Shown piece by piece: positions 10,480-54,597 of a DNA stretch of 64,000 nt. Numbering within the stretch: the stretch's first letter is position 1; each line of letters opens with the position of its first letter. The DNA is from Vicinamibacterales bacterium (GTDB lineage: Bacteria > Acidobacteriota > Vicinamibacteria > Vicinamibacterales > CAVVIG01). The position numbers and the translations under genes are program-made. The notes under the pieces are model-generated. The model saw only the letters and a program-made list of their open reading frames with translations, was not told where the DNA came from and made no database searches. The DNA is taken from positions 48,616 to 112,615 of the forward strand of contig JBFXAT010000003.1 in the NCBI GenBank assembly GCA_050183995.1, given 5' to 3'.

Positions 10480-10480
10480 C

Positions 10481-10687
10481 ATGTCGCTGAAGCACGTACA
10501 CGTCCTGTTCGTCGCGTCCGCCATTGCGCTCGCCGTGTTGTGCGGCGCGTTCGCGTCCGCGCGCCTGGCCGCCGCCCCGTCGCTGGCCGCTGCCGCCTCG
10601 CTCATCGTGTCCGCCTGCGGCGCGATCGTCCTGATCCGCTACGAGGCGCGATTCCTCCGCCGGTTTCGAGAGGGAGACGTCCATTGA
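10481..10687 (+). CDS. Hypothetical two-helix membrane protein inside the cox operon
   Basis: The ATG is 1 nt after the previous stop. MSLKHVHVLFVASAIALAVLCGAF...AAASLIVSACGAIVLIRY is 68 aa. No family was recognised. Confidence 0.45.
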   Translation: MSLKHVHVLFVASAIALAVLCGAFASARLAAAPSLAAAASLIVSACGAIVLIRYEARFLRRFREGDVH

Positions 10688-10713
10688 TTCACCGGATCCT
10701 GACACCCCGGAGG

Positions 10714-14524: not shown

Positions 14525-14581
14525 CTTTCGATGGGACCGACGGGGGATTTGGCTCGAGTCCGTGCGGTGCGGGCTCGAGCG

Positions 14582-15514: not shown

Positions 15515-15628
15515 ACGAAAAGCTTACCGGAACTCATTCCCGACTTGACCGGTCGTATTTGGCGCAGTAGACTGGCCAAACATTTTGAGACTGAATCTCG
15601 TTTTCGCTCCCAGGGGATTCTGACGGAT

Positions 15629-35781: not shown

Positions 35782-36084
35782 ATGCGCCTGGCGCTCGCGT
35801 TGCTCCTGCTGTCGCTCGCATCGGGATCGTGCAGCCGCGCGATCGACACCACTATCCAGGACGCGGCGATCACGGCCGGCGTCAAGACCGCGCTCTTGAA
35901 CGATGCTGCCGTCGACGGCACCACGGTGGAGGTCCGGACAGTGGGAGGCGTCGTGCGCCTCGAAGGGATGGCGCGGACGCGCGACGAGGCCGATCGCATG
36001 ATCGCCCTCGTGCGGGGCGTCGGCGGCGTCCGCGACGTCGATGCGCGGATCAGCGTTGAGCCTCGCTCCACTCCTCGGTTCTGA
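35782..36084 (+). CDS. BON domain-containing lipoprotein
   Basis: MRLALALLLLSLASGSCS, then IQDAAITAGVKTALLNDAAVDGTTVEVRTVGGVVRLEGMARTRDEADRMIALVRGVGGVRDVDARI. Confidence 0.8.
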   Translation: MRLALALLLLSLASGSCSRAIDTTIQDAAITAGVKTALLNDAAVDGTTVEVRTVGGVVRLEGMARTRDEADRMIALVRGVGGVRDVDARISVEPRSTPRF

Positions 36085-36927: not shown

Positions 36928-38289
36928 CTAGTCGACTGGAATGCTGGACGTGCTCGACCCGTCCGGCTGGAGGGCGAACTCCGCAATCTTCCGGTAGAGC
37001 GTGCCTCGGCTGATGGCGAGCACTCGTGCGGCCTCCTTCTTGTTCCACTGAACGGCCTCGAGCACGCGTGAGATGTGCGCGCGTTCTGCTTCGGCCAGCG
37101 TCGACAGCCGTTCCGACCCGAGCGGTTGTGCCGGCTCGGGACGGAGGAAGTCGACATCCTGCGCCCGAATCGCCCTGCCGGGCGCCGAGAGCGCCGCGCG
37201 GGCCACCGTGCTCTCCAGCTCCCGGATGTTGCCCGGCCACGCATAGGCGAGCAGCGCGTCGAGCGCGTCGCGCGTGAAGGACCGGCTGTCGGCGGGCAGC
37301 CCCTGCGCAAGACAGTGCCGCGCGAGGAATCGCTCGGCGAGGATCGGAATGTCGACGCGCCGTTCGCGCAGCGACGGCAGCCTGATCGCGAAGGCGTTCA
37401 CGCGGTAGTAGAGATCTTCGCGAAAGCGTCCGTCCCGCACGAACTCGTCGAGGGGCCGGTTGGTCGCCGAAATCAGCCGGAAGTCCACCGTGATCGAGCG
37501 GTGGCCTCCGAGGCGTTCGAACCGGCGTTCTTCGAGCACGCGCAGCAGCTTCGCCTGGGCGATGAGCGCCAGGTCGCCGATTTCGTCGAGGAAGAGCGTC
37601 CCATTGTCGGCCAGCTCGAGCCGCCCCGGCTTGCGCTCGTGTGCGCCGGTGAACGCGCCGCGTTCGTGCCCGAAGATCTCCGACTCGAACAGCGTGTCTG
37701 GCAGCGCGGCGCAGTTCACCGCCTGGAAGCGCCCGCTCGCGCGTCGACTCAGCTCGTGGATCATCCGCGCGACCACTTCCTTGCCCGATCCGGTCGGGCC
37801 CAGGATCAGGACCGAGATGTCGGACTTCGCCGCCGTCCTGATCCACTCGAACGCGATCAGCATCTTCTCGTCGCGCCCGATCATCTCCCTGAAGCGCTGC
37901 ACGGCAGGGGAGCGGTCTTCCACCGTCGCCGCGGCGCGCCGCTCGAGGAACTCGTCGAGGAGGAGCGCTGTGGTGTCGTCGGTCGGCCGCGTCGCGACGA
38001 AGCGTGACGGGAACAGCGTGCCCGGAATCATGTACGCGACGCCGAAGTCGACCAGTTCGCGCACGCAGGCCTCGACGTCCATTCGCAACCGGCCGACCGC
38101 CTGCATCAGCGCCTCGAGCTCGAACGCTTCGTCCGGGTGGGCGTTCAGGAATCGCAGCAGACCCGCGCGCAGCGGCGATTGCACCAGCGCGCGGAATCGT
38201 GCGGCGGCGTCGGCGATCGCGGCGTCGGGGAGGGTCGCAGTGCCGATCTGACTGGCACCGATCGTCGGGTCGTTCATTGCTGCATGCAA
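36928..38289 (-). CDS. Sigma-54-dependent transcriptional activator (bEBP) with a non-receiver N-terminal domain
   Basis: Walker A GPTGSGKE, GAFTGA motif (ERGAFTGAHE), C-terminal Fis-type HTH AARVLAISRGTLYRKI. The N-terminal 150 aa are neither receiver-like nor GAF/PAS-like by eye. Confidence 0.9.
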   Translation of the reverse strand: MHAAMNDPTIGASQIGTATLPDAAIADAAARFRALVQSPLRAGLLRFLNAHPDEAFELEALMQAVGRLRMDVEACVRELVDFGVAYMIPGTLFPSRFVATRPTDDTTALLLDEFLERRAAATVEDRSPAVQRFREMIGRDEKMLIAFEWIRTAAKSDISVLILGPTGSGKEVVARMIHELSRRASGRFQAVNCAALPDTLFESEIFGHERGAFTGAHERKPGRLELADNGTLFLDEIGDLALIAQAKLLRVLEERRFERLGGHRSITVDFRLISATNRPLDEFVRDGRFREDLYYRVNAFAIRLPSLRERRVDIPILAERFLARHCLAQGLPADSRSFTRDALDALLAYAWPGNIRELESTVARAALSAPGRAIRAQDVDFLRPEPAQPLGSERLSTLAEAERAHISRVLEAVQWNKKEAARVLAISRGTLYRKIAEFALQPDGSSTSSIPVD

Positions 38290-38389
38290 TGTATCGGCCG
38301 GTCGGCCGCCGAGCGACAGCGCAGCCGCAGGGATCGCTGATGATCGGGTGGTAAGCTAGGTGTCCGCTTCGACTTCAAGGAGACCGTAC

Positions 38390-41290: not shown

Positions 41291-42148
41291 ATGCTCGATC
41301 CCGGTCGGACTCGGAACGCCGTCGCCCCTTCGATCCTCGTCCTGCTCGCAGTGTGCACCGGGGCCTGCGTCGACATCGTGGCTGACGATGGCGGGATCGT
41401 CGAGCGTGTGGAGCACCGGTTCGACGCGGGCGATGAGCCGGTCATCGACGTGCAGACGTTCGACGGCCGCGTCAGCGTTGCGACCTGGAGCCGTCCCGAG
41501 GTGCTGATCGTGGTGGAGAAACACGCCGCCGATCAGGAACACGCGGATCGCATGCAGGTTGCCGCGACGCAGGAGGGGACGCGGATCGTGTTGGCGGTTC
41601 GCCAGACCGGCCCGCGGCAGATCGGGTTCAAGTCTGGTCCGTTCTCCGCACGGCTGCTCGTCATGGCGCCGCCGAGGTCCAGCTTGATCGCGCTCTCCGG
41701 GGACGGCGGGATCGACGTGGTCGATCTCGAAGGCGACATCGACGTTCGGACCGGCGACGGCCCGATACACGTCGCGGAGGTGTCCGGTGCCGTGAGCGCT
41801 CAATCGGGTGACGGGGGCATCGAGATAGAGGGCCGCCTGCGCAACCTGCGCGCGCGATCAGGCGACGGCGGCATCACCGTGCGGGCGCACGAGGGCAGTG
41901 CCGTCTCCGACCCGTGGAGCATCTGGACGGGTGACGGATCGGTGATGCTGGAGCTGCCCAGCGGTTTCGGCGCCGAGCTCGACGCGCACACCGGCGACGG
42001 CCGCATTCGCGTGAGCGACATTGCGTTCAGCGGCCCATCGCCCGAGCTGGCCAAGCGGAGTCTCCGCGGTCGCATCGGAGCCGGAGGTTCGCAGGTACGC
42101 ATCCACACCGGCGACGGTTCGATATCGGTGCGCGGCGTCAGCCCGTGA
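41291..42148 (+). CDS. DUF4097-like beta-strand-repeat lipoprotein
   Basis: GGAGG RBS. Lipobox LLAVCTGAC. Repeated SGDGGI/TGDG.I units (GDGGIDVVD, TGDGPIHV, SGDGGIEI, SGDGGITV, TGDGSVML, TGDGRIRV, TGDGSISV). Confidence 0.75.
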   Translation: MLDPGRTRNAVAPSILVLLAVCTGACVDIVADDGGIVERVEHRFDAGDEPVIDVQTFDGRVSVATWSRPEVLIVVEKHAADQEHADRMQVAATQEGTRIVLAVRQTGPRQIGFKSGPFSARLLVMAPPRSSLIALSGDGGIDVVDLEGDIDVRTGDGPIHVAEVSGAVSAQSGDGGIEIEGRLRNLRARSGDGGITVRAHEGSAVSDPWSIWTGDGSVMLELPSGFGAELDAHTGDGRIRVSDIAFSGPSPELAKRSLRGRIGAGGSQVRIHTGDGSISVRGVSP

Positions 42149-42839
42149 AGGTGCGGGCCGCGTAGTCGGTCGTGTCAGGTACGCCGGCCTTGACGAACGC
42201 CTCGTGCCGCTCGCGGCACTTGCTGCAGACGCCGCAGTGGCGTGGGAACGCAGGGCCGTTGGGGAGCGGGCTCATGCACGACAGCGTCAGCTCGAGCCGC
42301 ACACCGAGCGCCTGTCCACGGCGGATCACATCGATCTTGCTCGAGCCGGCATAGGGCGCCTGGATCTCCAGAGGGCTGTCGAGTCCGAGCGACAGGGCAT
42401 GAGCCATCGCGCCGCGGAAGTCCGGCGTGGCGTCGGGAAACGGATTGCGATCGAGCGTGCCGATCACCAGCCTGCGCACCCCGCGCATGCCGCAGAGGAT
42501 CCCCGCTTTCCCGAGGAGCACGATGTTCCGGCCCGGCAAGTACACGTCTTCGTCCGGCGTGTGGTACGCGGGAGGCGTTCCGTTCAGTGCCCAATGCGCG
42601 GCCGGGTACAGGTCGGTCATGTCGACCGTCAGCTCGACGAGCGGCAGCACCGAAGCCGACCGGTGTCCGTGCGCGAGGAAGTGCCGGACGGCGTCGCGCT
42701 CCGACGCCTCCCACGCGAGGCCGACCGAGACGTAGATGGGCTGTACGTCGATCGGCTGCGCGCCGGGGCGTGCGGCTTCCTCGGCCAGGAGCACGGCGCT
42801 GTCGAGCCCGCCTGACAGGAGTACGGCGACTGGAGGCAT
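42138..42839 (-). CDS. queC: 7-cyano-7-deazaguanine synthase-like PP-loop ATPase (divergent QueC)
   Basis: MPPVAVLLSGGLDSAVLL...YLPGRN...PFPDATPDF...SCMSP...HCGVCSKCRERHEAF. The PP-loop and C-terminal Cys cluster are present, but the canonical YGQRH block is not recognisable. Confidence 0.75.
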   Translation of the reverse strand: MPPVAVLLSGGLDSAVLLAEEAARPGAQPIDVQPIYVSVGLAWEASERDAVRHFLAHGHRSASVLPLVELTVDMTDLYPAAHWALNGTPPAYHTPDEDVYLPGRNIVLLGKAGILCGMRGVRRLVIGTLDRNPFPDATPDFRGAMAHALSLGLDSPLEIQAPYAGSSKIDVIRRGQALGVRLELTLSCMSPLPNGPAFPRHCGVCSKCRERHEAFVKAGVPDTTDYAARTFTG

Positions 42840-43022
42840 GGTGGAAATGTGGACGGGTCGAACCAAGGATTCTGCGGACCAGTTTTCCTGGCCGTTCGGC
42901 CGAGGCAGAGAATATCATTCGAAGGGCAGCGAGCGGTCGTCGGCCCGCCCGAGCCGTCGCTGAACCGGTCCATCGTCCAACTCGTCACGTTGCATCGTCC
43001 ACTCGTCATCCGTTCATTTCCC

Positions 43023-43424
43023 ATGTATTCAGTCACCAAGCGCATCGAGTTCTGCTACGGCCACCGGCTGCTCGACTACGACGGCATCTGCAAGCATCCG
43101 CACGGCCACAACGCCGTTGCCGAGATCGAAGTGCGGACCGATCAGCTCGACACCCGCAACATGGTCTGTGACTTCAGCGACATCAAGCGGACCGTGAAGG
43201 GCTGGATCGATCGGGAGCTCGATCACAAGATGATCCTCCGCCAGGACGATCCGCTCGTCGCCCCGCTGCGGGAGCTCGGCGAACCGATCTTCATCGTCGA
43301 CAGCAACCCGACGGTCGAGTGCCTGGCGCGCCTGATCTTCGACTATGCCGCCGGCCAGCAGTTGCCGGTCGTGCGTGTCACCGTGTGGGAGACCCCGACC
43401 TCGTTCGCCGAGTATCGGGCCTGA
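43023..43424 (+). CDS. queD: 6-carboxy-5,6,7,8-tetrahydropterin synthase
   Basis: Shows MYSVTKRIEFCYGHRLLDYDGICKHPHGHN...DHKMIL. Confidence 0.88.
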   Translation: MYSVTKRIEFCYGHRLLDYDGICKHPHGHNAVAEIEVRTDQLDTRNMVCDFSDIKRTVKGWIDRELDHKMILRQDDPLVAPLRELGEPIFIVDSNPTVECLARLIFDYAAGQQLPVVRVTVWETPTSFAEYRA

Positions 43425-43432
43425 CGCGATCG

Positions 43433-44122
43433 ATGGCGGCTCCCTCCGTGGCGCCGGCGCGGACGCCGGTGGCGCCGATCTCGCTGGTCGTCTTCGATCT
43501 CGACGGCACGCTCGTCGATTCTCTGCGGGATCTGACCGAGTCGTTGAACGAGCTGCTGGAGGAATACGGACTGCGGCCTCACGGCCAGGACGCCGTCGGG
43601 CGCATGGTCGGTGAAGGCGCGGCAACACTCGTGGCGCGCGGCTTCGCGGCGGCGGGTCGCGAGGCGCCAGCCGGCGCCCTCGCGCGCTTTCTCGAGCTGT
43701 ATGAAGGCAGGGTGTTGCGTTTCACGCGTCCGTACCCAGGGGCGCTGGAGATGCTCGATCTCCTCGGACGCACGCACCGCCTTGCGCTGCTGACGAACAA
43801 GCCGCGTCTGTCGACGATGGCCGTCCTCGACGGATTGGGCCTGGCCGCCTACTTCGGCGACTCCATCGTCGGCGGGGACGAACCGATCCCGCGGAAGCCG
43901 GACCCCGCCGGCCTGCTCCATCTCGCCGGGCGCGCCGGCGTTCCGGCCGCGTCGACGCTGCTCGTGGGCGACTCGTTCGTCGACTTTCGGACCGCCCGAT
44001 CCGGCGGCGCGCAGATCTGCATGGCGCGGTACGGATTCGGTTTCGCTGAGTTTCCCGTCGAACAGCTGAACCCCTCGGATCGCCTGATCGACGCGCCGCT
44101 GCAGCTCCTTGCTTCGCTGTAG
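43433..44122 (+). CDS. HAD-superfamily hydrolase (phosphoglycolate-phosphatase-like)
   Basis: Shows LVVFDLDGTLVDS...LLTNKP...VGDSFVDFRTA. Confidence 0.85.
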   Translation: MAAPSVAPARTPVAPISLVVFDLDGTLVDSLRDLTESLNELLEEYGLRPHGQDAVGRMVGEGAATLVARGFAAAGREAPAGALARFLELYEGRVLRFTRPYPGALEMLDLLGRTHRLALLTNKPRLSTMAVLDGLGLAAYFGDSIVGGDEPIPRKPDPAGLLHLAGRAGVPAASTLLVGDSFVDFRTARSGGAQICMARYGFGFAEFPVEQLNPSDRLIDAPLQLLASL

Positions 44123-44220: not shown

Positions 44221-44236
44221 TGGCACCGCCGTTGCT
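44221..44236 (+). promoter_or_regulatory. Sigma-54 (-24/-12) promoter upstream of the gas-vesicle genes
   Basis: TGGCAC-CGCCG-TTGCT, an exact TGGCAC-N5-TTGCW match in the correct orientation, 79 nt upstream of the gvpJ ATG. It is the only such match seen in the window. Confidence 0.7.
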
Positions 44237-44314
44237 CCTCGGTCCTGGTCCAAGTTTGATTGCGTTGGCGCGCTGCCGTAACGGCCAGCGGACCTGTCAC
44301 GGCTTACCGAGATT

Positions 44315-44689
44315 ATGCCTACGTCCTTGACTGACGGGCACGGGCGTTCCACCGGGCTCGTTGATGTGCTCGACCGTGTGCTCGACAAGGGTCTGGTCGT
44401 GGCAGGCGACATCCGCGTGTCGCTCGCCGAAGTCGAGCTCCTCACGATCCGCATTCGTCTGCTGATCTGTTCGATCGACAAGGCCGAGCAGATCGGGCTC
44501 GACTGGTGGAAGTTCGACCATCACCTCTCACCAGGGAAGCAGGCGCTCTCCGCGGAGAACGAGGAGCTGCGTCGGGAGCTTCGCGCCCTCGAGCGGAAGC
44601 TGGCGGCCGCGACGAAACGCCGGCCGGTGTCAGGCGCGCGGGGCCAGGCGATGCGCGCGCGAACGTCAGGAGAAGACGATGCCCGTTGA
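44315..44689 (+). CDS. gvpJ: Gas vesicle protein, GvpJ-like (GvpA/J/M family with C-terminal extension)
   Basis: Shows [51 protein letters not shown]. Confidence 0.88.
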
Positions 44690-44996
44690 ACGAGCCGCAG
44701 GCGGCACGAGCCTGATCGACGTCCTCGATCGTGTCCTCGACAAGGGCATCGTCATCGACGCGTGGGTCCGAGTGTCGCTGGTCGGCATCGACCTCATCAC
44801 CGTCGAAGCACGCGTCGTCGTGGCTTCGATCGACACGTATCTGAAGTATTCGGAAGCCGTGGGACATGCTGCGCCCGTGAGCCGGCCGGCTGTCGAAACC
44901 AAGCCGTATGAGGAAGTCCTTGCCGAAAACGCAGCACTCCGGGCTCAGCTCCAGAGTCGTGCCGCTGGCAGCCGGGCTGCTGGCGCACGACGCTGA
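44679..44996 (+). CDS. gvpA: Gas vesicle structural protein GvpA
   Basis: Shows [52 protein letters not shown]. Confidence 0.92.
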
Positions 44997-47175
44997 TCGC
45001 TCGCGCGGCGCCGATGGCAACGGCGCCGATCACAATCGGCAGGGCGCTCTCGCCCCGGAAGGCGCGCGCCTGGACGCGCGTCTCCAGCTCCTCGAGGGGT
45101 TCCTCAGCCGTACCGATCTCGGCGACACGGCCCAGTACGGCCTCGAGTGGCTGTCGCGGGTTCTTCGCGTGCCGAAAGCGCTCTGTGTGATCCGGCAACG
45201 CGGTGAGAACGTCCTTCACCCCATCGGGTGGCACGGCCTGCCCCCCGCCGACGCAGCGGCGTTCGCCGTCTCGGTCGGCGAGTGGGAGAGTCCGCTGCTC
45301 AGCGTCCTGCAGACGCGGCGCACGGTTCACTATCCGGCGCCGGAGACGGTCGCCGATCGCCGCAATCGTCCGGCGACGCCCTTCGGCGACGCGCCGTTTC
45401 ACGCCGTGCCCCTGGGGTTGTCGACCTTCTCCGACCAGACGCTCGGGCTGTTGCTCTGCGCCGGGGGTCCGCGGCTGCCCGACGACTTCGGCTGGTTCTG
45501 CTCGACGTTCGGACACAAGCTGGATCAGATCCTCCGGCATCAGGCGCTGGCTGCCGGCGGGACGCGTGATGGCCACGAACGCTCGCTGCTCTACAGCATC
45601 ATCAACGCCGTCACCGATCCGATCCTGCTGACCGACACGGAAGGGCGGCTGCTCATCGCGAACGCCCGCGCCCTCGCGCTGTTCACCGCGTCTGAGGAAG
45701 AGAGCGAAGGGCGGCGCAGCGCGGTCCGCATGAACAACATGCTCCTGTCGTCGGCGCTCTCGAGCAAGGCAATCGAGGAGGCCGGCGCCTCCCGCCGGGA
45801 GCTGCCTCTGGTCAATCCGGTGGACGGCTCCGATCTGCTGTTCGAGCTCCTCAGCACCACCATCGAGGACGCCCGGCACGGCACCGGAATCGTGTCCATC
45901 CTTCGCAACGTGACCGACCTGCGGCACGCGAGCGAGGAGCTCGAAGAGAACTACCGCCGCCTGCGGATCGCCGAGGCACAGGCGCGGGCCGAGAGCAACC
46001 GCCAGAACCTGATCATCAACTCGGTCGCCGACCCAATCGTCGTCACCGATGCGGCGGGCGCGACGTCGCTCATGAACGACCTCGCCGAACGCCTCTTCAC
46101 GCTCCGGCCGCAGGCGGGCGACGCCGAGCGGCGGGTGGTGCAGTCGAACGACGCCCACTTCTCGACCTTCATCGCGGGAATGCTGGTCGGCGAGGATCCG
46201 CGGCGCGTGGGCCTGATCGCCCTGGCCGACCCGCACACGGGCGAAGCGATGCCGGTCGAAGCGATTGCGGGACGCGTGCTGTCGGACCGCGGCGAGCTGA
46301 CGGCCGTTGTCACCATCCTGCACGACAGGCGCGAAGCGCTCGAGAAGGCGAGGCTCTACGAGCAGGTGAAGTCGGTGTCCGCCGAGCTCGAACGGAAGGT
46401 CCAGGCGGCGACCGCCGACATCGCGCAGCAGAACGAGCTGCTCCGGCGGCAGGCGATCGAGCTCGAGCAAGCCTCGATGCTGAAATCGCAGTTCCTCGCG
46501 AACATGTCGCACGAGTTCCGCACGCCGCTCAATGCCATCCTGGGCTACACGTCCATGCTGCTGCAGGGCGTCGGCGGGCCAATCGAAGGCGCGGCGCGCC
46601 GGCAGCTCGGGCGCATCGAGTCGAATGGCAGACACCTGCTCGCCATCATCAACGAGATCCTCGACATTTCCCGGATCGAAGCCGGCCGGATGCCGCTGCA
46701 GATGTCGCGCTTCGCCATCCCCGAGCTCGTTCACGAGGTCCGGGCCGAGCTGGAGCCGATCATCCTGCGCTCGCGATTGAGCTTCACGCTCGATCTGCCG
46801 CGCGACCTGCGGCCGATCACGAGCGATCGGCACAAAGTGAAGCAGATACTGATGAACCTCGTGAGCAATGCCCTGAAGTTCACGCACGAAGGCAGCGTGA
46901 CCATTGTCGCCAGACGACGGCTTGCGGAGCGCGCAATCGAGCTCTCGGTGGTGGATACTGGCATTGGGATCGCGCCGATGGACCAGGAACGCGTCTTCGA
47001 GGACTTTCGACAGCTCGACAACTCGCCGACCAGGCCTTACGGGGGGACGGGCCTGGGACTCTCGATCTGCAGCCGCCTGGCGCAGATGCTCGACGGGACG
47101 CTGACGCTCAAGAGTCAATTGGGCGTCGGCTCGAGATTCACGCTGAGACTCCCCATTCAGCAGGAACGCGGATGA
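44908..47175 (+). CDS. Cytosolic sensor histidine kinase (GAF-like, two PAS-like regions, HisKA, HATPase_c)
   Basis: H-box [15 protein letters not shown], plus [16 protein letters not shown] and GTGLGLSI. No transmembrane segment is visible. Every in-frame start candidate (ATG 44908, TTG 44920, GTG 44959) overlaps the gvpA 3' end. Confidence 0.88.
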
Positions 47176-47612
47176 CTACTTCAGATACCCACGGCCGCCC
47201 GAAAGTGCTGCTGGTCGACGACTATCCCGATGCACGGGAGATGTACAGCGAGTATCTCCAGTTCTCGGGGTTCGACGTCGTCGAGGCCTCCAACGGGATG
47301 GAGGCGCTGCAGCGCGCGGCAGAGACGGCGCCCGACATCATCCTGATGGACCTGTCGCTCCCGGTGATGGACGGGTGGGAGGCCACACGCCGGCTGAAGG
47401 CCGACGAGCGCACTGCCGGCATCCCTGTAGTCGCGCTCACCGGCCACGCTCTGGCGGGCATTTCGGAAGGGGCTCGGCAGGCCGGCTGCGATGCATTCGT
47501 CACCAAGCCATGCCTGCCGGAGGATCTCGTGAAGGAGATCCGCCGGGTGTTGAGCGGCTCGGGCGACGTGAGGTCTGGCGGGAGCGGCAAATATGCGAAG
47601 ACGATCGGCTGA
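47172..47612 (+). CDS. Stand-alone response-regulator receiver domain protein
   Basis: [10 protein letters not shown]...[13 protein letters not shown]...VVALTGHA...FVTKP, with no output domain. ATGA overlap with the kinase stop. Confidence 0.9.
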
Positions 47613-48579
47613 CGCCGCCCAGGGGACGAGACGCGCGACCCCCCGGCAGGTGAAGGCGAAGTCTCCGGTCAGGCCTTCGTCCCCGTCTGCGGTCCGGAAC
47701 GGGAAGTCGCGCGCCGCAGGAAACGGGCACGCACGGAACGCGAGGCGCAGAAGCGCGGAGGCCGTTGCGGCGCGAGTCGCGGACGACAACGTGTTCGAGC
47801 CCATCGGCGGCGTCGACGGCAGCGCCCTCGCCAGCCGCGGCAAGTACGTCTACTGCATCATCGAAGCCGCCGAGCCGCTCGCATTCGGTCAGATTGGCAT
47901 CGGTACCGCGCCGAGTGACGTGTTCACGGTCCACTTCCGGCACCTCGCCGCGGTCGTCTCCGACGCGCCGCTGGAAGTGCTCGACTCCACTCGCGAGAAC
48001 GTCCTCGCGCACGAGCGCGTGAACGAGACCGTGATGCGGGAGCACACCGTCATCCCGATGTCGTTCGGCACCATCTTCAAGACGCGCGAAGACATCGTCG
48101 AGCTGCTCCGCTCCGCCGCCGAGGCGTTCGGCGACGTGCTGAACAAGATGCAGAACAAGCTCGAGTTCGGCCTGAAGGTGTTGTGGGATCGCGACCAGGC
48201 GATCCGGGAGCTCGAGAAGGACGACGAGGACATCAGGCGCCTGAAGGAGGAGATCTCGAGCCAGAAGGGGCCGACCTACTTTGCGCGCATGCAATACGGC
48301 CGGCTGGTGGACGCCGCCCTCCAGGCGCAGTCGGAGCGTTACCTCTCGGCGATCCTCGCGGACTTGCGGGATGTCTCGGTCGCATCGCGGATCAACAAGC
48401 CGATTGGCGACAGGATGATCATGAACGCGGCCTTCCTGATCTCGCGCGATCGAGAAGCAGCCTTCGATGCGCGCGTGAAGGCGATAGCAGCGCGTTTCGA
48501 CAAGCTGACGTTCAAGTACACGGGCCCGTGGCCTCCCTATAACTTCGTGAACATCCGGTTGAAGCTCGAGCGCGCCTAG
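47593..48579 (+). CDS. gvpF: Gas vesicle protein GvpF/GvpL family (copy 1) with a basic N-terminal extension
   Basis: KYVYCIIEAAEP...VHFRHLAAVVSD...HERVNETVMREHTVIPMSFGTIF...FKYTGPWPPYNF. The start is uncertain; the N-terminal 80 aa are Arg/Ala-rich. Confidence 0.85.
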   Translation: MRRRSADAAQGTRRATPRQVKAKSPVRPSSPSAVRNGKSRAAGNGHARNARRRSAEAVAARVADDNVFEPIGGVDGSALASRGKYVYCIIEAAEPLAFGQIGIGTAPSDVFTVHFRHLAAVVSDAPLEVLDSTRENVLAHERVNETVMREHTVIPMSFGTIFKTREDIVELLRSAAEAFGDVLNKMQNKLEFGLKVLWDRDQAIRELEKDDEDIRRLKEEISSQKGPTYFARMQYGRLVDAALQAQSERYLSAILADLRDVSVASRINKPIGDRMIMNAAFLISRDREAAFDARVKAIAARFDKLTFKYTGPWPPYNFVNIRLKLERA

Positions 48580-48581
48580 CC

Positions 48582-48881
48582 GTGTTCATCCTCGATTCGC
48601 TTCTCATCGGATCCCTGCGTTTCGTGCTGGATAAGGTCGCGATCGCCGCCGAGACGGAACTGCACGACGACACGGCCGTTCGAGAACAGCTCCTCGAGGC
48701 GCAGATGCAGCTCGAGCTCGGCGAGATCAGCGAGGAGGAATTCGGCCGGGTCGAGGCCGCGGTCTTCGAACGCCTGCGGGCGTTGAGGGTCGCCCAGCCC
48801 CACGGCTTGACGCTCGCATCGCCAGAGGTCAGAGTGACCGGCATCGAGGCTACGGTGGCCGGAGACAGTCACGAAGACTGA
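48582..48881 (+). CDS. gvpG: Gas vesicle protein GvpG
   Basis: Shows MFILDSLLIGSLRFVLDKVAIAAETELHDDTAVREQLLEAQMQLELGEISEEEF. Confidence 0.88.
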   Translation: MFILDSLLIGSLRFVLDKVAIAAETELHDDTAVREQLLEAQMQLELGEISEEEFGRVEAAVFERLRALRVAQPHGLTLASPEVRVTGIEATVAGDSHED

Positions 48882-48892
48882 CCCCGCTTCGC

Positions 48893-49684
48893 ATGAGCCG
48901 CGCCACCTACGTCTACTGCGCCGTGGCCAGTTCGATCCGGCCGGCCCCGTCAGGGCTTCGCGGCCTTCCCCGTACGGGCGAGGTGCGACTGCTCGACGTC
49001 GATCGCGGCCTGTGGCTCGTCGTCGCTGACGCTCCGCTCGCGACGTACGGCGAGGCCCACCTCGCCGCCAGGCTCGGCGACCTGCGCTGGGTGTCCAGGG
49101 CTGCCGTCGCGCACGACCGCGTCGTCGAGGCGTTTCGCGGCGCGGATGCGGTCTTGCCGATGAAGCTGCTGACCCTGTTCGCGAGCGATGAGCGGGCGCT
49201 GCAATACGCGGCGGAGATGCGTGAGACGCTGGATCGGCTCGTGACACGCGTCAAGCGGCACGACGAGTGGGGGTTGCGGCTGACTCTCGGATCGCCGCAC
49301 CGGCCGACGGCGCGCGGGCCGCGCGCGGCGGCGTCGACTGCGTCGACGGTCGCCCGTGCCCAGAGCGGCGCCCAATATCTCGCACGGAAGAAGGCCGCTC
49401 GAGACGAGGGCGCGGAGCGCACCGCGCGGGGACGGACGCTCGCCGAAGAGCTCTGCGCGTCGCTGGCGCGGCACGCATCGGCCGTGCGCAGACGTGGCGA
49501 CGATGGGATTGGCGCGGACGGTCGAGGGCGGTCCCTGCTGCTCGACGCCGCAATGCTGGTGCCCCGCGCCCAGGCGGCCAGATTCAGTGCGGCTGCGGCC
49601 CGTCGGGCGAGAGCCCTGGCGCCGGACGGCTTCGATCTCGTTCTGACCGGACCTTGGCCGCCGTACAGCTTCATGAAGGACTGA
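48893..49684 (+). CDS. gvpL: Gas vesicle protein GvpF/GvpL family (copy 2)
   Basis: Shows TYVYCAVAS...WLVVADAP...HDRVVEAF...AVLPMKLLTLF...LVLTGPWPPYSF. Confidence 0.85.
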   Translation: MSRATYVYCAVASSIRPAPSGLRGLPRTGEVRLLDVDRGLWLVVADAPLATYGEAHLAARLGDLRWVSRAAVAHDRVVEAFRGADAVLPMKLLTLFASDERALQYAAEMRETLDRLVTRVKRHDEWGLRLTLGSPHRPTARGPRAAASTASTVARAQSGAQYLARKKAARDEGAERTARGRTLAEELCASLARHASAVRRRGDDGIGADGRGRSLLLDAAMLVPRAQAARFSAAAARRARALAPDGFDLVLTGPWPPYSFMKD

Positions 49685-49686
49685 GC

Positions 49687-50037
49687 GTGCCGAAGCAGTC
49701 CCGAAGAGAAGCCGCCTCGTCGCCACTGGAACGTGTGCTCGAACCTGGGGGATCGAGCCTGCTCGACGTGCTCGACCACGTGTTGGCCAAAGGGGTGACG
49801 GCCACCGGCGATCTGACCTTGGGGCTGGCAGGTGTCGACCTGATCTACCTGCGTCTGTCGGCGCTGCTCGCCGCCGCCGATCGGGTGCTGCCGCGTGTGA
49901 AGGCGCAGCAACGTGAAGGCGCGAAAGGGCAGACGCGTGGAGGTGCCAAGGCGCAGCAACGCCGACATGTGAAGGCGCATGCACGCGGCAAGGCCGCGGC
50001 TTCACCGGCGGGTTCGCGCCGGAGCGGACGGCGATGA
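49687..50037 (+). CDS. Gas vesicle protein, GvpS/GvpM-like divergent member of the GvpA/J family with a Lys/Arg-rich tail
   Basis: The GTG start is 2 nt after the previous stop. SLLDVLDHVLAKGVTATGDLTLGLAGVDLIYLRLSALLAAADRV. Confidence 0.75.
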   Translation: MPKQSRREAASSPLERVLEPGGSSLLDVLDHVLAKGVTATGDLTLGLAGVDLIYLRLSALLAAADRVLPRVKAQQREGAKGQTRGGAKAQQRRHVKAHARGKAAASPAGSRRSGRR

Positions 50038-50504
50038 CCCGGAAACGCCGCGACCGGGAGCCGGAGCGGCCGCCACGTGCCACCCCCCGAACAGGTGCGA
50101 CGCGAGCCGCTGGCGGCCACAAGAGGACATCTGTTCGCGCGAAGTCCCCTCGCGCCGCACCCGTAACCGCATCAGAGCTTCGCGCCCTGCAGCGCGAGCT
50201 CCAGCGGCGCGTCGGTGCCGCGGGGCCGTCGAGGCCTCGTGACGGCGCACGCTGGAACCCCGATCCCGAGGATGTCCAGAAGTCGGTCGCGCAACTCGTG
50301 CTGACGATCGTCGAATTCCTCCGTCAGTTGATGGAGCGCCAGGCCATCCGCCGCATGGAAGCGCAGACGCTGACGCCGGAGGAGATCGAGGGAGTAGGGG
50401 TGGCGCTGATGCGCCTCGAGGAGACGGTGCGCGACATGGCTGCCCGGTTCGGCCTCGCTCCGGAGGATCTGAACCTGGATCTCGGTCCGATCACCCTCCG
50501 CTAG
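50034..50504 (+). CDS. gvpK: Gas vesicle protein GvpK
   Basis: LVLTIVEFLRQLMERQAIRRMEAQTLTPEEIEGVGVALMRLEETVRDMAARFGL.PEDLNLDLGP. ATGA overlap with the previous gene. Confidence 0.88.
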   Translation: MTRKRRDREPERPPRATPRTGATRAAGGHKRTSVRAKSPRAAPVTASELRALQRELQRRVGAAGPSRPRDGARWNPDPEDVQKSVAQLVLTIVEFLRQLMERQAIRRMEAQTLTPEEIEGVGVALMRLEETVRDMAARFGLAPEDLNLDLGPITLR

Positions 50505-50530: not shown

Positions 50531-52912
50531 CTACATTCCCACGCGGACACCGACCCTGAAGGTCCGCGGCAGCCCTGGGCGCGACACGTAATCGGCCACC
50601 GGAGCATCCTCGATTGCCGCCGGCGATCGCGGGTCCCGAATGCGCGTGGAGAAATAGTACGCCTCGTCTTCGTATCGCCGGTCGAACAGGTTGAAGCCCT
50701 GGAAGACGATCCGAATGCGAGGCGCGACCTGATACTCCGCCTGGGCGTTCATCACGAGGGAGCTCTGGAGGAAGATCGATTCGTCGGGCACGAGCGGCCG
50801 CCGTCCGACGTAGCGGCTTCGCAACGACGCGGCGAGCTTCGGCCGCGTGACGCTGACACCCGCCGTGATGACCGCCCGCGCCGTATCGGTGATCGCGCGT
50901 CCGATTCCCTCCGGGTCGATCCGGTACCGGGCCGACGACCACGCCGAGTCGAGGTCGATCGCGAGCCAGGGCCGCAGCCGAACGTAGTTCAACCATTCGA
51001 GGCCGAAGCGGCGCCCGGGCCGCTCGGGTGACGTGACGCCGTCCTCCGGCGTGTAGAGCAGCTCGGAATCCGATCCGAGATACCAGAGCGCCAGCGACAC
51101 CTGCGTCTGCCGCGCGGGCTGCATCCGCACGCCGACCTCCGCGCCGCGCGTCCGCACGATCGGCGGTGTGCCCTCCACCGCCGAACCGTCGTACCGCGTC
51201 GCGGCTCCGGTCACCGGGTCCACACGCTGCATCACACCCGCAGCGTGGTTGCTGTGAAACCCCAGTCCCGCATTGGTATAGATCTCCGTCTTCCTCCACG
51301 GACCGAAGACCACCGACGCTTTGGGGCTGACGATGGCGGCCTGTCTCACCCCGGAGTTCGCCGCGTGGCCCGCCCGCACGTCCATGCGCAGGGCGTCCGC
51401 GCGCGCGCCGGCGACGATGCGCATCCAGGGTGTGAGCTGGAGCCGTGCGTCCACGAAAGGCGAGATCGTCGTCTCGCCGATGCGCGTGTCGAAGACGAGG
51501 GCAGGCCGAAGCCGTCCCTCGTCGTCGAACTTGTCGCGAGGATCGCGGCCGACCGTGTTGCGAAGCCCGACCCGCGTGCGATCGTGGCGCGCCTGAAGTC
51601 CGGCAGTCAGCTCGACATGGCCGATCGCGGATTGGAGCGCGCGGGCGTAGCTGACGTGAGCGCCCGAGGAGATGCGTCGATCCGACTGTTGGATCTGATC
51701 GCCGTCCACGGCGCTGACCGTCCAGAACGTCAGGTTCGAAAAGAGGTCCATGTCGTAGTAGCGAACGTACGCGCCGGCGTTCAGGAGCGACGATCCGCTC
51801 GCCACCCGGCGCGACGCCACCACGAAGTGCTGCTGCGATCGCCCCCCGTTAGTCGGGTCGAGCGTGCCGAAGCGCGACATGTATCCGCGCTCCAGGGCGC
51901 GGCGCGGGTAGCCGTCGCTGGCGGTCCAGTCGGCGGCGTAGCTCGAGACCGTGAGACTGGAATGGCGATCCGCCGTTCCACTCGAGTAGCGCGCGAACGC
52001 CTTGTACCGTCCGTAGTCGTCCGGCACCACGTTGGGCCCATTGTCTTGGCTCGCTTCGGCCCCGAGGAGCAGACGATGGCCGTGGCGTTCGACCGATGTG
52101 CCTGCCGCCAGACGTACGAAGCCGAACCCGCCGCCCTCCACCCGTGCGAACGGCGCCGCGATCGAGTCGACGAGCTCGAAATTGGTGGAGCCGGCCGTTC
52201 CGAAGTTGCCGACGCGCGCCGAATACGGCCCCTTCTGAAAGTCGACCCGTTCGACGAGCTCGGGAATCAGGAAGTTGAGGTCGATGTACCCCTGGCCGTG
52301 CGCATGACTCGGCGCATTCAACGGCATCTGTTCCAGGAAGGCGGCGAAGTCGGTGCCGTGATCGAGGTTGTAGCCGCGCAGCAGGATGATCGGCGCGTGG
52401 CCGCCGCTGCTGTGCTGTGTCATCGCGACGCCCGGCACGACCTCCAGCAGGTCTCCCGCCTTGGTCAGTGGCCGCGCCGACAGCTCTGACCGGCCTACGG
52501 CACCCTCGCTCGCCGATGCGCTGACCCCGACCAGGCTCGACGCCCGCCCCTCGACGGTCATCGTCTCGCCGAACGGGCGGTACAGGGTCACGATGATCCG
52601 CCGGCCGCCGCCGCGAACGAAGTCGAAAGGCTCGGTCGCGTGAGCCTGGTAGCCCTCCGCCGTGGCCAGGATCGGCCCGCTGGCGCGATCGCCGTCAATC
52701 CTCAGGCAGTAGCCGCCCTCCATGGGGGTTGCGACAACCGGCCCGCCCTCGGCGAGGAGCTCGACGTGCGCCGGAACCGCGGCGCCGGCCAGGTCGACGA
52801 CTTCGATCGTCGCGGCGCAGGCGCCCGCCTCCTGTGCGGCGGCTGTGCCCGAGAGGAGCGCGAAAGGAAGACAACACGCGGCGGCGAAAACCTGAATTTT
52901 GTGCAATAACAC
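50531..52912 (-). CDS. TonB-dependent receptor with an N-terminal CarboxypepD_reg-like domain
   Basis: Signal peptide. Plug region LLEVVPGVAMTQHSSGGHAPIILLRGYNLDHGTDF...VERVDFQKGPYSARVGNFGTAGSTNF. Beta-barrel ending ...FRVGVRVGM. GTG start. Confidence 0.9.
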   Translation of the reverse strand: MLLHKIQVFAAACCLPFALLSGTAAAQEAGACAATIEVVDLAGAAVPAHVELLAEGGPVVATPMEGGYCLRIDGDRASGPILATAEGYQAHATEPFDFVRGGGRRIIVTLYRPFGETMTVEGRASSLVGVSASASEGAVGRSELSARPLTKAGDLLEVVPGVAMTQHSSGGHAPIILLRGYNLDHGTDFAAFLEQMPLNAPSHAHGQGYIDLNFLIPELVERVDFQKGPYSARVGNFGTAGSTNFELVDSIAAPFARVEGGGFGFVRLAAGTSVERHGHRLLLGAEASQDNGPNVVPDDYGRYKAFARYSSGTADRHSSLTVSSYAADWTASDGYPRRALERGYMSRFGTLDPTNGGRSQQHFVVASRRVASGSSLLNAGAYVRYYDMDLFSNLTFWTVSAVDGDQIQQSDRRISSGAHVSYARALQSAIGHVELTAGLQARHDRTRVGLRNTVGRDPRDKFDDEGRLRPALVFDTRIGETTISPFVDARLQLTPWMRIVAGARADALRMDVRAGHAANSGVRQAAIVSPKASVVFGPWRKTEIYTNAGLGFHSNHAAGVMQRVDPVTGAATRYDGSAVEGTPPIVRTRGAEVGVRMQPARQTQVSLALWYLGSDSELLYTPEDGVTSPERPGRRFGLEWLNYVRLRPWLAIDLDSAWSSARYRIDPEGIGRAITDTARAVITAGVSVTRPKLAASLRSRYVGRRPLVPDESIFLQSSLVMNAQAEYQVAPRIRIVFQGFNLFDRRYEDEAYYFSTRIRDPRSPAAIEDAPVADYVSRPGLPRTFRVGVRVGM

Positions 52913-52920
52913 AGAGTATT

Positions 52921-52949
52921 TTGATAACTCAAAATTGAGAAAGTGGCAA
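52921..52949 (-). promoter_or_regulatory. Candidate sigma-70 promoter of the TonB receptor, with a 12-bp palindrome in the spacer
   Basis: Minus strand reads TTGCCA-N17-TATCAA. The perfect palindrome CTCAAAATTGAG (52928..52939) sits between -35 and -10. The -10 element ends 8 nt before the GTG start. Confidence 0.5.
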
Positions 52950-53019
52950 CACGAAACTTCAGGTCACGCCGGAAAGTGGGCGCGAGCTCGCCGCTCCAGA
53001 CAGCTTGCCGCTCAGATGG

Positions 53020-53691
53020 TCAGGGCAGTTCGACGAGGAGCTTGGAGGCGGCGCGGGCGCCGATCGTGATCGCCGTGCCGCCGGCGACGACCAACTGAAC
53101 GGCGTCGGCCGCGGCATCGCGCGACTCGACCTCGATGGTCTGGCCCGGCTTGAGGTCGTTCTTCTCGACGAATCGAAGGAACGCGGGATCCTGATCGGCG
53201 ATGCGCGTCACGCGCAGGGGCCTGCCGACGGCGCAGGAGAGGAGGTTATCGTGCTGGTGGGCTGGCAGCGTGCCTTCCGGACCGGGGATCGGGTCGCCGT
53301 GCGGGTCGTGGGTCGGGTGCCCGAGCATCTCGTCGATCCGCTCGATCAGCCGATCGGACACAACGTGCTCGAGCTGTTCGGCGTCCTCGTGGACTTCGTC
53401 CCAGCTCATGCCCATGACCTGCACGAGGAACAGTTCGACGAGCCGGTGCCGCCGCAGGACGAGGCCGGCGAGCTTCTCACCCGACGCCGTCAGACGGACG
53501 CCGCTGTACGGCTCGTATTCCGCCAGTCCCGACTCCGCCAGCGCCTTGACCATCGTCGTGGCGGTTCCGGGCGTCACGCCGAGCGCGGCGGCCACATGAC
53601 CCATCGACACCAGGCGAGCGCCGTCGGCGAGCGCCACCTGGCCGTGGTAGATCGCTTTCAAGTAGTTCTCGACCGTGCTCGACGGAAGCAT
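53020..53691 (-). CDS. DtxR/IdeR/MntR-family metal-dependent transcriptional regulator with a C-terminal FeoA/SH3-like domain
   Basis: Shows VENYLKAIY...VSMGHVAAALGVTPGTATTMVKALAESGL...RRHRLVELFL...WDEVHEDAEQLEHV...HDPHGDPIP. Confidence 0.9.
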   Translation of the reverse strand: MLPSSTVENYLKAIYHGQVALADGARLVSMGHVAAALGVTPGTATTMVKALAESGLAEYEPYSGVRLTASGEKLAGLVLRRHRLVELFLVQVMGMSWDEVHEDAEQLEHVVSDRLIERIDEMLGHPTHDPHGDPIPGPEGTLPAHQHDNLLSCAVGRPLRVTRIADQDPAFLRFVEKNDLKPGQTIEVESRDAAADAVQLVVAGGTAITIGARAASKLLVELP

Positions 53692-53783
53692 GGCAGGCCG
53701 TATTATCCATCGGATGTTGCGGCGGCCGAGTTGTGGGGCCGCGCCCCGCCCACCCCGCCCGGGAAGCCGCTATCATCGCTGCG

Positions 53784-54512
53784 ATGTCGCTGCGCGCGCG
53801 CCTGGCCAGTTTCGAAGGCCGGCGCACGTACGCCCGCGCGCTTTTTGCGACGATCGCCGATCGCTACGACCTGATCACGGTGGTCCTGTCATTCGGACGC
53901 GATCTCGCCTGGAAGCGCCGGCTTTTGCGCCTGGCCGCCGCACGGCCCGGCAGCCGCGTGCTCGACCTGGCGACCGGCACTGGGGACATTGCATTCCTGC
54001 TCGAGGACGCCGGCGCCCGGGTCATCGGACTCGACGTCACGTGGCGCATGCTGCAACTCGCCGTCGCCAAGCGGCCGGCGCACGCCGGACCATCGTTCGT
54101 CTCCGCGGACATGATGGCGCTTCCGTTCGTCTCCTCGTCGTTCGAGGTCGTGACGACCGGTTACGGCCTGCGAAACGCGCCCGACCTAGGACGCGCGCTC
54201 GATGAGATCGCCCGTGTGCTGAAGCCTGGTGGGCAGCTCGTCTCTCTTGATTTCGAGCGGCCGGCGCATCCCGTGATCCGGTCCATCTACTTTGCGTATC
54301 TCGGGTTGGTCGGCGGCGCACTTGGCTGGCTGTTGCACCGCGACCCGGACACCTACCGCTACATCCCCGCGTCCATCCGCCGCTATCCTGACGCGGCCGG
54401 ACTCCGCAACGTGCTGCACGAGCGAGGGTTCGACGATGTCACGCGATTCCGGGTGCTTGGAGGGCTGCTCGCGATCCACCGGGCACGGCTGGGGGTTCGA
54501 GGCATCCGGTGA
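53784..54512 (+). CDS. ubiE: Demethylmenaquinone/ubiquinone C-methyltransferase family (UbiE/MenG)
   Basis: Shows FATIADRYDLITVVLSFGRDLAWKR...VLDLATGTGD...TTGYGLRNAPD...LKPGGQLVSLDF. Confidence 0.85.
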   Translation: MSLRARLASFEGRRTYARALFATIADRYDLITVVLSFGRDLAWKRRLLRLAAARPGSRVLDLATGTGDIAFLLEDAGARVIGLDVTWRMLQLAVAKRPAHAGPSFVSADMMALPFVSSSFEVVTTGYGLRNAPDLGRALDEIARVLKPGGQLVSLDFERPAHPVIRSIYFAYLGLVGGALGWLLHRDPDTYRYIPASIRRYPDAAGLRNVLHERGFDDVTRFRVLGGLLAIHRARLGVRGIR

Positions 54513-54570
54513 ACGGCTCGGGGGAAGCTAATGAAGGCTCGCGGAATCTAATGAACGGATGGGCTCGAGC
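54509..54570 (+). repeat. Three imperfect direct repeats upstream of the PilT-like gene
   Basis: gTGAACGGCTCGgggg / cTAATGAAGGCTCGcgg / cTAATGAACGGatGGGCTCGagc. CTAATGAA occurs twice (54528 and 54548) and TGAACGG twice. Confidence 0.5.
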
Positions 54571-54597
54571 CGACAATTCTCCTAGCGCACTCTACCC

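Follow-up and report, generated by a model that had tools for sequence, protein, structure and literature searches.

Why should a sensor histidine kinase and a stand-alone receiver be encoded in the middle of a gas-vesicle gene cluster? This question is raised by a cluster of gas-vesicle protein (gvp) genes in a 64-kb stretch of DNA (contig JBFXAT010000003.1, hereafter the window; GC content about 68%) from a metagenome-assembled genome (MAG) of an uncultured member of the Vicinamibacterales (Acidobacteriota). The kinase and receiver genes of this cluster are inserted between gvpA and gvpF, and we found the sensor of the kinase at the same position, directly after gvpA, in related clusters from several phyla. 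We consider it probable that the pair is a dedicated signalling module, made together with the gas-vesicle proteins from a sigma-54-dependent operon, which tunes their production through a protein partner.

A kinase and a receiver gene lie inside a nine-gene gvp cluster

The cluster consists of nine contiguous genes on one strand (44315-50504, +) that overlap or lie at most about 12 nt apart. An earlier note, made from the letters of the window alone, had counted eight genes and placed the start of the cluster at 44221. There are nine, seven gvp and two signalling genes; the gvpJ-like gene begins with the ATG at 44315, in a frame closed upstream by an in-frame stop at 44279, and 44221 is the position of a promoter motif. 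Gene identities were assigned from matches to Pfam profiles, and since every gene of the cluster scored above the gathering cut-off, the Gvp, kinase and receiver assignments made in that note stand. The genes are, in order:

44315..44689, + strand: gvpJ-like gene; 124 aa; Pfam Gas_vesicle, E 1.4e-16; GvpA-family domain with a C-terminal coiled-coil tail
44679..44996, + strand: gvpA; 105 aa; Pfam Gas_vesicle, E 8.9e-17; NCBIfam NF006874, 112.1 bits
44908..47175, + strand: histidine kinase; Pfam PAS, HisKA (E 1.9e-19) and HATPase_c (E 4e-27)
47172..47612, + strand: receiver-only response regulator; 146 aa; Pfam Response_reg only, E 2.8e-25
47593..48579, + strand: gvpF; 328 aa; Pfam GvpL_GvpF, E 3.7e-75, at aa 83-320
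48582..48881, + strand: gvpG; 99 aa; Pfam GvpG, E 8.7e-16
48893..49684, + strand: gvpL, the second GvpF/L paralogue; 263 aa; Pfam GvpL_GvpF, E 1.2e-40
49687..50037, + strand: gvpS/M-like gene for a small GvpA-family protein; 116 aa from the GTG at 49687; Pfam Gas_vesicle, E 2.5e-11
50034..50504, + strand: gvpK; 156 aa; Pfam GvpK, E 4.4e-31

Inspection of the junctions revealed tight packing throughout. The 3' end of the gvpJ-like gene overlaps the gvpA start by 11 nt. The kinase frame offers in-frame ATG, GTG or TTG starts at 44908, 44920 and 44959 only, and because every one of these precedes the gvpA stop at 44996, the overlap between gvpA and the kinase gene is real, amounting to 38-89 nt depending on the start that is used. 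The kinase stop and the receiver start form an ATGA overlap (4 nt), the gvpF ATG at 47593 sits 20 nt inside the receiver gene, gvpG starts 2 nt past the gvpF stop, and a second ATGA overlap joins the gvpS/M-like gene to gvpK. The three overlaps around the signalling pair had been described in the earlier note and were confirmed here, and its view that the pair looks co-transcribed with the structural genes is supported. Consensus scans of the + strand, a weak form of evidence, detected neither a sigma-70-like promoter nor a terminator inside the cluster or elsewhere between 43900 and 50800. The nine genes are likely to be co-transcribed.

The sensor of the kinase follows gvpA across phyla

Conservation of this arrangement was assessed in a scan of one genome per GTDB species, seeded with an alignment of diverse GvpK proteins, a family that comprises 1417 clusters in the representative library when grouped at 50% identity. 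We mapped the best 80 of at least 582 GvpK-positive loci, which are those closest to the window GvpK. Loci containing gvpA and at least 1.5 kb of downstream sequence were scorable, and 59 species-level loci qualified. All of the related loci, referred to here by L numbers, are MAG contigs; their taxa were taken from the record titles, and binning errors are possible.

A homologue of the PAS-PAS sensor of the window kinase lies directly after gvpA in 55 of the 59 scorable loci, a proportion that describes this clade of gvp clusters and not all of them, because the loci mapped are those nearest to the window GvpK. These 55 kinase-type loci come from Vicinamibacteria, Thermoanaerobaculia, Blastocatellia and Pyrinomonadaceae, Terriglobia, Methylomirabilota, Myxococcota, Gemmatimonadales, Planctomycetota and Chloroflexota. 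The four loci without the kinase are two from Mycobacterium, one from Thermopolyspora and one from the Myxococcales; the first three are gvpA-F-…-J-L-S-K clusters, with a gvpO match in two of them (L065 and L066, the third being L080). Among the kinase-type loci, 48 of 55 contain a receiver gene and 40 of 55 a gene for a two-domain ArsA-like ATPase, and gvpN and gvpO are found in none (0/55) within the flanks examined. Relatives lacking the pair, which the earlier note had named as a reason to doubt its interpretation, are thus not what was found. The insertion is conserved and not accidental.

Three long contigs of Vicinamibacterales/Luteitalea show the same gene order, J-A-HK-RR-F-G-(ArsA)-L-S-K (HK, histidine kinase; RR, response regulator), together with the same flanking genes. 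We designate as type I those clusters that keep the window order J-A-HK-RR-F-…; in these, the kinase gene either overlaps the end of gvpA or begins no more than about 50 nt from its stop. Kinase and receiver genes overlap by 4 nt in 32 of the 47 related loci scorable for this feature. A separate idea, that gvpA and the kinase gene share a frame with a single stop between them and could be joined by readthrough, was rejected, since the shared frame occurs at a frequency of about 1/3, the chance expectation.

In the literature on gas vesicles in Vicinamibacter, Acidobacteria, Rokubacteria and soil MAGs, we found no description of this cluster class. With no gvpN or gvpO, a canonical GvpA, and a GAF-PAS-PAS kinase and stand-alone receiver behind gvpA, it is apparently undescribed.

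The kinase and the receiver retain their catalytic residues

The predicted layout of the kinase comprises a disordered segment (residues 1-50), a divergent GAF domain (51-215), PAS1 (223-334), PAS2 (377-473), a DHp domain with H535, and a catalytic domain (599-749). An AlphaFold2 model built on 59 homologues, with a mean predicted local distance difference test score (pLDDT) of 71, contains a confident alpha/beta domain at 51-215, two PAS folds (with a helical insert in both), a long pair of DHp helices and the catalytic domain. Residues 1-50 are poorly conserved and disordered in the model. No transmembrane segment was detected in the kinase (maximum 19-residue Kyte-Doolittle value 1.18), and it is predicted to be cytosolic. 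All four motif boxes (H, N, G1 and G2) are intact, with H535 in SHEFRTPL, DTGIGI as the G1 box and GTGLGL as the G2 box. The kinase is 100% identical to an annotated protein of a Vicinamibacterales MAG, and more than 100 homologues share 67-75% identity with it. The PAS region is nearly invariant among the homologues and the N-terminal GAF domain is variable; positions conserved in at least 95% of 57 kinases are concentrated in PAS1, PAS2 and the catalytic boxes.

The nature of the N-terminal domain was pursued by several routes. Pfam did not detect a GAF domain in the full-length window kinase, and the excised domain gave a weak match to GAF_2 (E 0.0038) that fell below the cut-off. GAF or GAF_2 was matched by 6 of 17 orthologous N-terminal domains (best E 5e-10), and a profile of these 17 domains matched the GAF structure 3oov in the PDB with an E of 6.5e-6. 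These matches point, if weakly, to a divergent GAF domain. The earlier description of the protein as a cytosolic GAF-PAS kinase was therefore borne out in its cytosolic location and in its PAS domains, of which there are two, and has to be modified for the GAF domain, which is divergent and escapes Pfam in the full-length protein. Two further attempts were set aside: single-sequence AlphaFold2 prediction of the sensor region was unusable (mean pLDDT 40), and a Foldseek search of the PDB with the full-length model was dominated by kinase cores and multi-domain phytochromes, so that the N-terminal domain could not be named by it.

The phospho-acceptor pocket of the receiver is intact (D16, D17, D60, T90, K112), and Pfam recognized no output domain in the protein, in agreement with the earlier note, which had described intact phospho-acceptor residues and no DNA-binding output. 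Among solved structures, the receiver is closest to DivK (1m5t, E 7e-23), which likewise stands alone and exerts its effect by contacting other proteins. Against the curated NCBIfam families, both kinase and receiver score below every cut-off. From the coupling of the genes and the intact motifs, we infer that kinase and receiver form a putative cognate pair.

A separate observation concerns the Luteitalea sp. MAG GCA_009380045.1 (L002, about 10262-10705), in which an in-frame stop replaces the Ser codon of the receiver open reading frame (ORF) just past the phospho-acceptor Asp (MDL*LP). No receiver gene was called in this locus because the stop interrupts the ORF, which reflects either a sequencing error or a pseudogene.

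The sensor is kept while kinase cores and outputs change

Gene order differs between lineages. Clusters of Pyrinomonadaceae, Blastocatellia and Chloroflexota have the order F-G-ArsA-L-S-F-K-J-A-HK-RR, and those of Terriglobales the order ArsA-L-S-K-J-A-HK-F; the adjacency of gvpA and the kinase gene, in that order, survives both rearrangements. In ten loci (L054, L056, L060, L063, L068, L070, L071, L074, L081 and L084) the kinase has the NtrB-like H-box AHEINNPL and not SHEFRTPL. These kinases, from Chloroflexota, Pyrinomonadaceae, Blastocatellia and Terriglobales, retain the PAS-PAS sensor, with PAS1-PAS2 regions 34-42% identical to that of the window protein (E 1e-35 to 1e-54). None of 25 other kinase cores encoded in the flanking DNA has such a PAS-PAS sensor. 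This pattern suggests that the core of the kinase was exchanged and the sensor ahead of it retained. Because the sensor is conserved while the type of core changes, we regard the PAS-PAS sensor tied to gvpA as the defining feature of the family, and the output as exchangeable.

The outputs vary as well. Type I receivers are stand-alone domains of 130-150 residues. In one Pyrinomonadaceae locus (L056), the kinase gene is followed by a gene for a receiver (REC)-STAS protein (13299-14147) and then by one for a REC-HisKA-HATPase-REC hybrid kinase (14241-15899), and in Methylomirabilota (L005, 4421-5926) a DUF4118-HisKA-HATPase-REC hybrid kinase is encoded between gvpF and gvpG. A Gemmatimonadales MAG (L029, 2068-3504) has an NtrC-type gene (REC, Sigma54_activat, HTH_8) that ends 10 nt before gvpJ, and which is the closest parallel, within the kinase-type class, to GvrA of Serratia. 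No OmpR- or NarL-type DNA-binding receiver occurs among the outputs described in relatives, which are predicted to be protein-binding modules or a sigma-54 activator.

Some further variation was seen in individual loci. In L044 and L046, the operon begins with the displaced receiver gene, ahead of gvpJ, and gvpK lies on the opposite strand, convergent with the remainder of the cluster. The GAF-like N-terminal domain of the kinases of L070, L071 and L084 contains a conserved Cys-rich stretch (CWEAERERRQDCLA ... QVCSACGMRAY) that is not present in the window protein and could be a metal or Fe-S (iron-sulphur) site. The ArsA-like ATPase, about 620-650 aa in length, is encoded between gvpG and gvpL (L005, 6246-8204; L002, 12095-13144). 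No copy occurs in the window, in L001, L014, L027, L029, L031, L032 and L039, or in L048, which is cut off upstream of gvpA; its presence is thus patchy within one cluster class that also has no GvpN.

A sigma-54-type element precedes the cluster

The sole real intergenic space upstream of the cluster contains a sigma-54-type element, and a gene for a sigma-54 enhancer-binding protein is found farther upstream in the window:

44221..44236, + strand: sigma-54-type -24/-12 promoter element TGGCACCGCCGTTGCT; exact motif match
36928..38355, - strand: sigma-54 enhancer-binding protein; Pfam Sigma54_activat and HTH_8; a candidate partner, uncertain

The element lies 94 nt before the ATG of the gvpJ-like gene. 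It is the only exact match to TGGCAC-N5-TTGCW on both strands of the 64 kb, where 0.02 matches would be expected by chance. The same element was found 83-131 nt upstream of gvpJ in L001, L002, L011, L014, L016 and L051, six loci among which the surrounding DNA has diverged. Five Thermoanaerobaculia-type loci carry a variant, GGGCAGA-N-TCTTGCA, 65-85 nt upstream of the gene, and a sixth has a related element at 126 nt; in the motif scan, the background probability of a score of at least 10 was 0.012. On this motif match alone, the element at 44221 is a predicted sigma-54 promoter.

Pfam detected no NtrC-type activator gene inside the window operon, and the gene at 36928-38355 is the only one for a sigma-54 activator in the window. 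The N-terminal 157 aa of its product have no Pfam match; by eye, they look winged-helix-like and not like a receiver. Synteny of the gene with the cluster is seen in L001 and L002, and only as part of a neighbourhood that is syntenic throughout. As a direct target of the kinase this protein was rejected, having no receiver domain and an association with the cluster that amounts to neighbourhood synteny only. Two other sigma-54-like motifs were noted in passing. One, TGGTATGAACCCTGCA, lies about 230 nt upstream of the NtrC-type gene of L029; the other, TGGCGCTCGCGTTGCT, at 35789-35804 (+) in the window, has one mismatch, and about one such match is expected by chance.

A small set of gas-vesicle genes

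The core accessory set is present in the window, with GvpF, GvpL, GvpG, GvpK and small GvpA paralogues all above the Pfam gathering scores. GvpA is canonical, scoring 112.1 bits against the cut-off of 100 of the NCBIfam model NF006874, and is longer than the canonical 70-aa protein by about 35 aa at its C-terminus (44890-44996). The DNA for this extension also encodes, in another frame, the disordered N-terminus of the kinase, in which the sequence MRKSLPKT is conserved in many homologues; this conservation is possibly explained solely by the overlapping gvpA frame.

GvpF begins with a basic, low-complexity extension of about 80 aa (window 47593-47838). In 28 of 38 related loci, its frame runs without interruption back to the receiver stop, compared with 10 and 16 loci for the two control frames. 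Where it is closed (ten loci), a start codon lies 3-21 nt past the receiver stop in eight; in the remaining two, the start is 87 nt past that stop (L032) or none could be placed (L051). The third-position GC of the spacer in the gvpF frame is 0.8-0.97 in nearly all related loci. The extension looks coding, in line with the earlier note, in which the gvpF ORF was read as beginning within the receiver gene. In L001, L002 and most type I loci, the extension is 60-150 aa long, has a basic character with many Ala, Pro and Arg residues, and starts at or within the stop codon of the receiver gene; it is poorly conserved in sequence, yet open and codon-biased.

Searches by tblastn found no homologue of gvpN, gvpO, hsp20 or arsA in the 64-kb window (all E > 0.6), and the two GvpN query proteins gave no match below E 0.7. 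The cluster had been described in the earlier note as lacking gvpN and gvpO, and this holds for the whole window. No spare ORF that could be gvpC is left within the contiguous cluster, which is the part of the window to which the search for GvpC was confined. A tblastn search of a plasmid collection with GvpF returned 39 records; the two plasmid gvp clusters inspected, from Octadecabacter and Spartinivicinus, contain gvpN and no kinase gene, and served as the source of the GvpN and GvpO queries. In a review, gvpA, gvpC and gvpFGKLN are listed as the conserved gas-vesicle genes (PMC9501494).

The flanks of the cluster are conserved with it in Vicinamibacterales. Upstream (42138-44122) lie queC and genes for a 6-pyruvoyl-tetrahydropterin synthase (queD-like) and a HAD phosphatase. 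Downstream (50531-56388) are genes for a convergent TonB-dependent receptor (Plug domain), a DtxR-family iron regulator, a UbiE-type methyltransferase and, about 4 kb from the operon, a T2SSE/PilB-like ATPase identified by Pfam. The sole Rfam or tRNA match in the window is a tRNA-Glu (CTC) gene at 6244-6318 (+).

What the signalling pair may control

We favour, at a rough probability of 60%, the reading that the window holds a single sigma-54-dependent operon with a dedicated, co-transcribed signalling module, which tunes gas-vesicle production via a protein partner and most likely through feedback on sigma-54-dependent transcription. The PAS and GAF domains would sense an intracellular cue, with oxygen, redox or energy state as the most obvious candidates. 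As the intact motifs and the coupling of the genes suggest, the kinase would autophosphorylate on H535 and hand its phosphate on to D60 of the receiver, which in phosphorylated form may then bind another protein and thereby tune gas-vesicle production; because the receiver has no DNA-binding domain, it would have to act through protein binding. In the likeliest circuit, the module would feed back on transcription of the operon by way of an enhancer-binding protein, or of another kinase, whose gene lies elsewhere. We favour this circuit because the operon has a predicted sigma-54 promoter and encodes its own kinase and receiver, and because of the NtrC-type gene of L029 and the precedent of GvrA and gvpA1 in Serratia.

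Several points weigh against this reading. The sigma-54 motif is clear in just two clades of the cluster class. The enhancer-binding protein of the window has no receiver domain and is encoded about 6 kb upstream of the operon, among unrelated genes. Five Terriglobales/Terriglobia-type loci (L070, L071, L076, L083 and L084) keep the kinase and have no receiver gene in the sequence examined, which in the three long ones among them covers about 10 kb on each side of gvpK. Consensus scans for promoters and terminators are weak evidence in Acidobacteriota. Finally, gvpN-less clusters of Streptomyces have not been seen to produce gas vesicles (PMC4982088), and the formation of gas vesicles by gvpN-less clusters of the present class is a prediction.

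The strongest alternative is that the phosphorylated receiver acts post-translationally on the assembly machinery, for example the GvpF/GvpL nucleators, GvpG or the ArsA-like ATPase of relatives, and so gates assembly. The receiver is output-less and DivK-like, and its gene is coupled in translation with both neighbours, the kinase gene and gvpF, whose variable basic N-terminal extension begins at the receiver stop. The presence of the sensor right after gvpA across phyla suggests a close tie to the structural genes, and a cluster with no GvpN ATPase leaves room for another control point. Against it, the receiver gene is found in front of gvpJ in L044 and L046 and is missing from the five receiver-less loci, so that the coupling of receiver and gvpF is not obligatory; the sigma-54 promoter and the NtrC-type gene of L029 point to transcriptional control, and the in-cluster regulators of Serratia act on transcription (PMC4982088). 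We regard gating of assembly as unlikely, though worth keeping in mind, and consider transcriptional feedback at least as likely as an action of the receiver on the assembly machinery. An extended form of the idea appears more doubtful still: the PAS-PAS sensor would receive an organelle-specific input, such as unassembled GvpA or gas or oxygen status, and the receiver would gate assembly through GvpF/L or ArsA, which would amount to an assembly checkpoint shared across soil phyla.

The kinase and receiver might instead be passengers, made together with gas vesicles in order to reprogramme motility, pili, biofilm formation or cell-cycle kinases. Single-domain receivers of the CheY/DivK type classically control motors or other kinases, clusters of Methylomirabilota and Pyrinomonadaceae encode extra hybrid kinases, and the T2SSE/PilB-like ATPase gene lies close downstream in the window. 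In Serratia, moreover, flotation is regulated oppositely to flagellar motility (PMC5601083). However, the downstream genes are not conserved outside Vicinamibacterales, unlike the position of the kinase gene after gvpA, and in the 55 kinase-type loci the sensor occurs only next to gvpA. Because this cross-phylum association is so strict, a function within the gas-vesicle pathway is the simplest reading, and we think a passenger role decidedly improbable.

A fortuitous or decaying insertion of an unrelated two-component pair between gvpA and gvpF, for which one could cite the interrupted receiver ORF of L002 and the absence of the kinase from the plasmid-borne and actinomycete clusters examined, is scarcely credible and has been effectively refuted by the locus survey, given a kinase gene after gvpA over several phyla, intact catalytic residues, 4-nt overlaps, and more than 100 close homologues with a nearly invariant PAS region.

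The regulation of gas vesicles is known in few models, which are GvpD/E of haloarchaea, GvrA-C and global regulators in Serratia, and CtrA in Cereibacter. The clusters described here make up a large, unstudied gvp class in soil bacteria, spanning Acidobacteriota, Methylomirabilota, Myxococcota, Gemmatimonadota, Planctomycetota and Chloroflexota, with a sensor kinase and receiver of its own, and they offer a handle on two questions, the role of gas vesicles in soil and the cue that switches them on. With seven gvp genes in about 3.6 kb, no GvpN or ArsA, and no gvpC ORF in the cluster, the window would hold one of the smallest natural gas-vesicle gene sets; if functional, such a minimal set would be relevant to the engineering of acoustic reporter genes. 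The retention of the sensor, with exchange of kinase core and outputs (receiver-only, REC-STAS, NtrC-type), may be viewed as a natural experiment in the rewiring of signalling around an organelle operon.

Comparison with known systems

The earlier note had compared the cluster with those of the actinomycete type. The likeness lies in the F-G ... L-S-K order, in the absence of gvpN and gvpC (for gvpC in the window, from the cluster), and in soil hosts with no obvious need of flotation (PMC9501494, PMC4982088). The Streptomyces-type order is gvpO-A-F-G-(Y-Z)-J-L-S-K (PMC9501494), and actinomycete GvpA has been reported to be divergent (PMC4982088). In contrast, the window has a canonical GvpA, gvpJ before gvpA, and the kinase and receiver genes between gvpA and gvpF, whereas two of the three actinomycete loci in our survey keep gvpO and none has the kinase or receiver. 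The comparison thus holds in part, for the F-G-L-S-K order and the lack of gvpN, the same contiguous F-G-L-S-K core being found also in the gvpAPQBRNFGLSKJTU cluster of Bacillus megaterium (PMC9501494), which differs in having gvpN, the extra genes P, Q, B, R, T and U, and no signalling genes.

Two-domain ArsA-like ATPases were described in gvp clusters, one of them acidobacterial, by Castillo and Saier in 2010 (PMC2963123). The position of ArsA between gvpG and gvpL in 40 of our 55 kinase-type clusters recalls that work; the window differs in having no ArsA, and neither a kinase nor a receiver is mentioned there. The DivJ/PleC-DivK system of Caulobacter provides another parallel, since the receiver is nearest to DivK, the kinase core scores well against models or structures of DivJ, PdhS and DivL, and the output would pass from a stand-alone receiver through protein-protein contact. 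The parallel is limited to mechanism: every NCBIfam score falls well short of the family cut-off, and the genomic context and sensor domains are different.

Regulators encoded within gvp clusters are known as GvpD/E in haloarchaea and as GvrA/B/C in Serratia and other Proteobacteria (PMC4982088), and two-component control in trans has been reported for CckA/ChpT/CtrA in Cereibacter (PMC11999139). The statement in the earlier note that no two-component module was known to be wired into a gvp operon overlooked the Serratia genes. In Serratia sp. ATCC 39006, gvrA (NtrC-like), gvrB and gvrC are co-transcribed with gvpH-Z-F2-F3, and all three are needed for gas-vesicle production and for expression from gvpA1, whose operon has a sigma-54 promoter (PMC4982088); expression of its gas vesicles responds to low oxygen (PMC4982088, PMC6617781, PMC11778176). 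As in the window, regulatory genes are found within a gvp operon together with gvpF paralogues, and a sigma-54 -24/-12 element, in the window a motif match, stands before the structural operon. Serratia has two operons, with the NtrC-like GvrA in the cluster and with gvpN, gvpC, gvpV and others, whereas the window has one operon with no activator and no gvpN or gvpC, and carries its kinase and receiver genes between gvpA and gvpF. By published description, the gvrA/B/C genes of Serratia appear to be the closest precedent for the arrangement described here.

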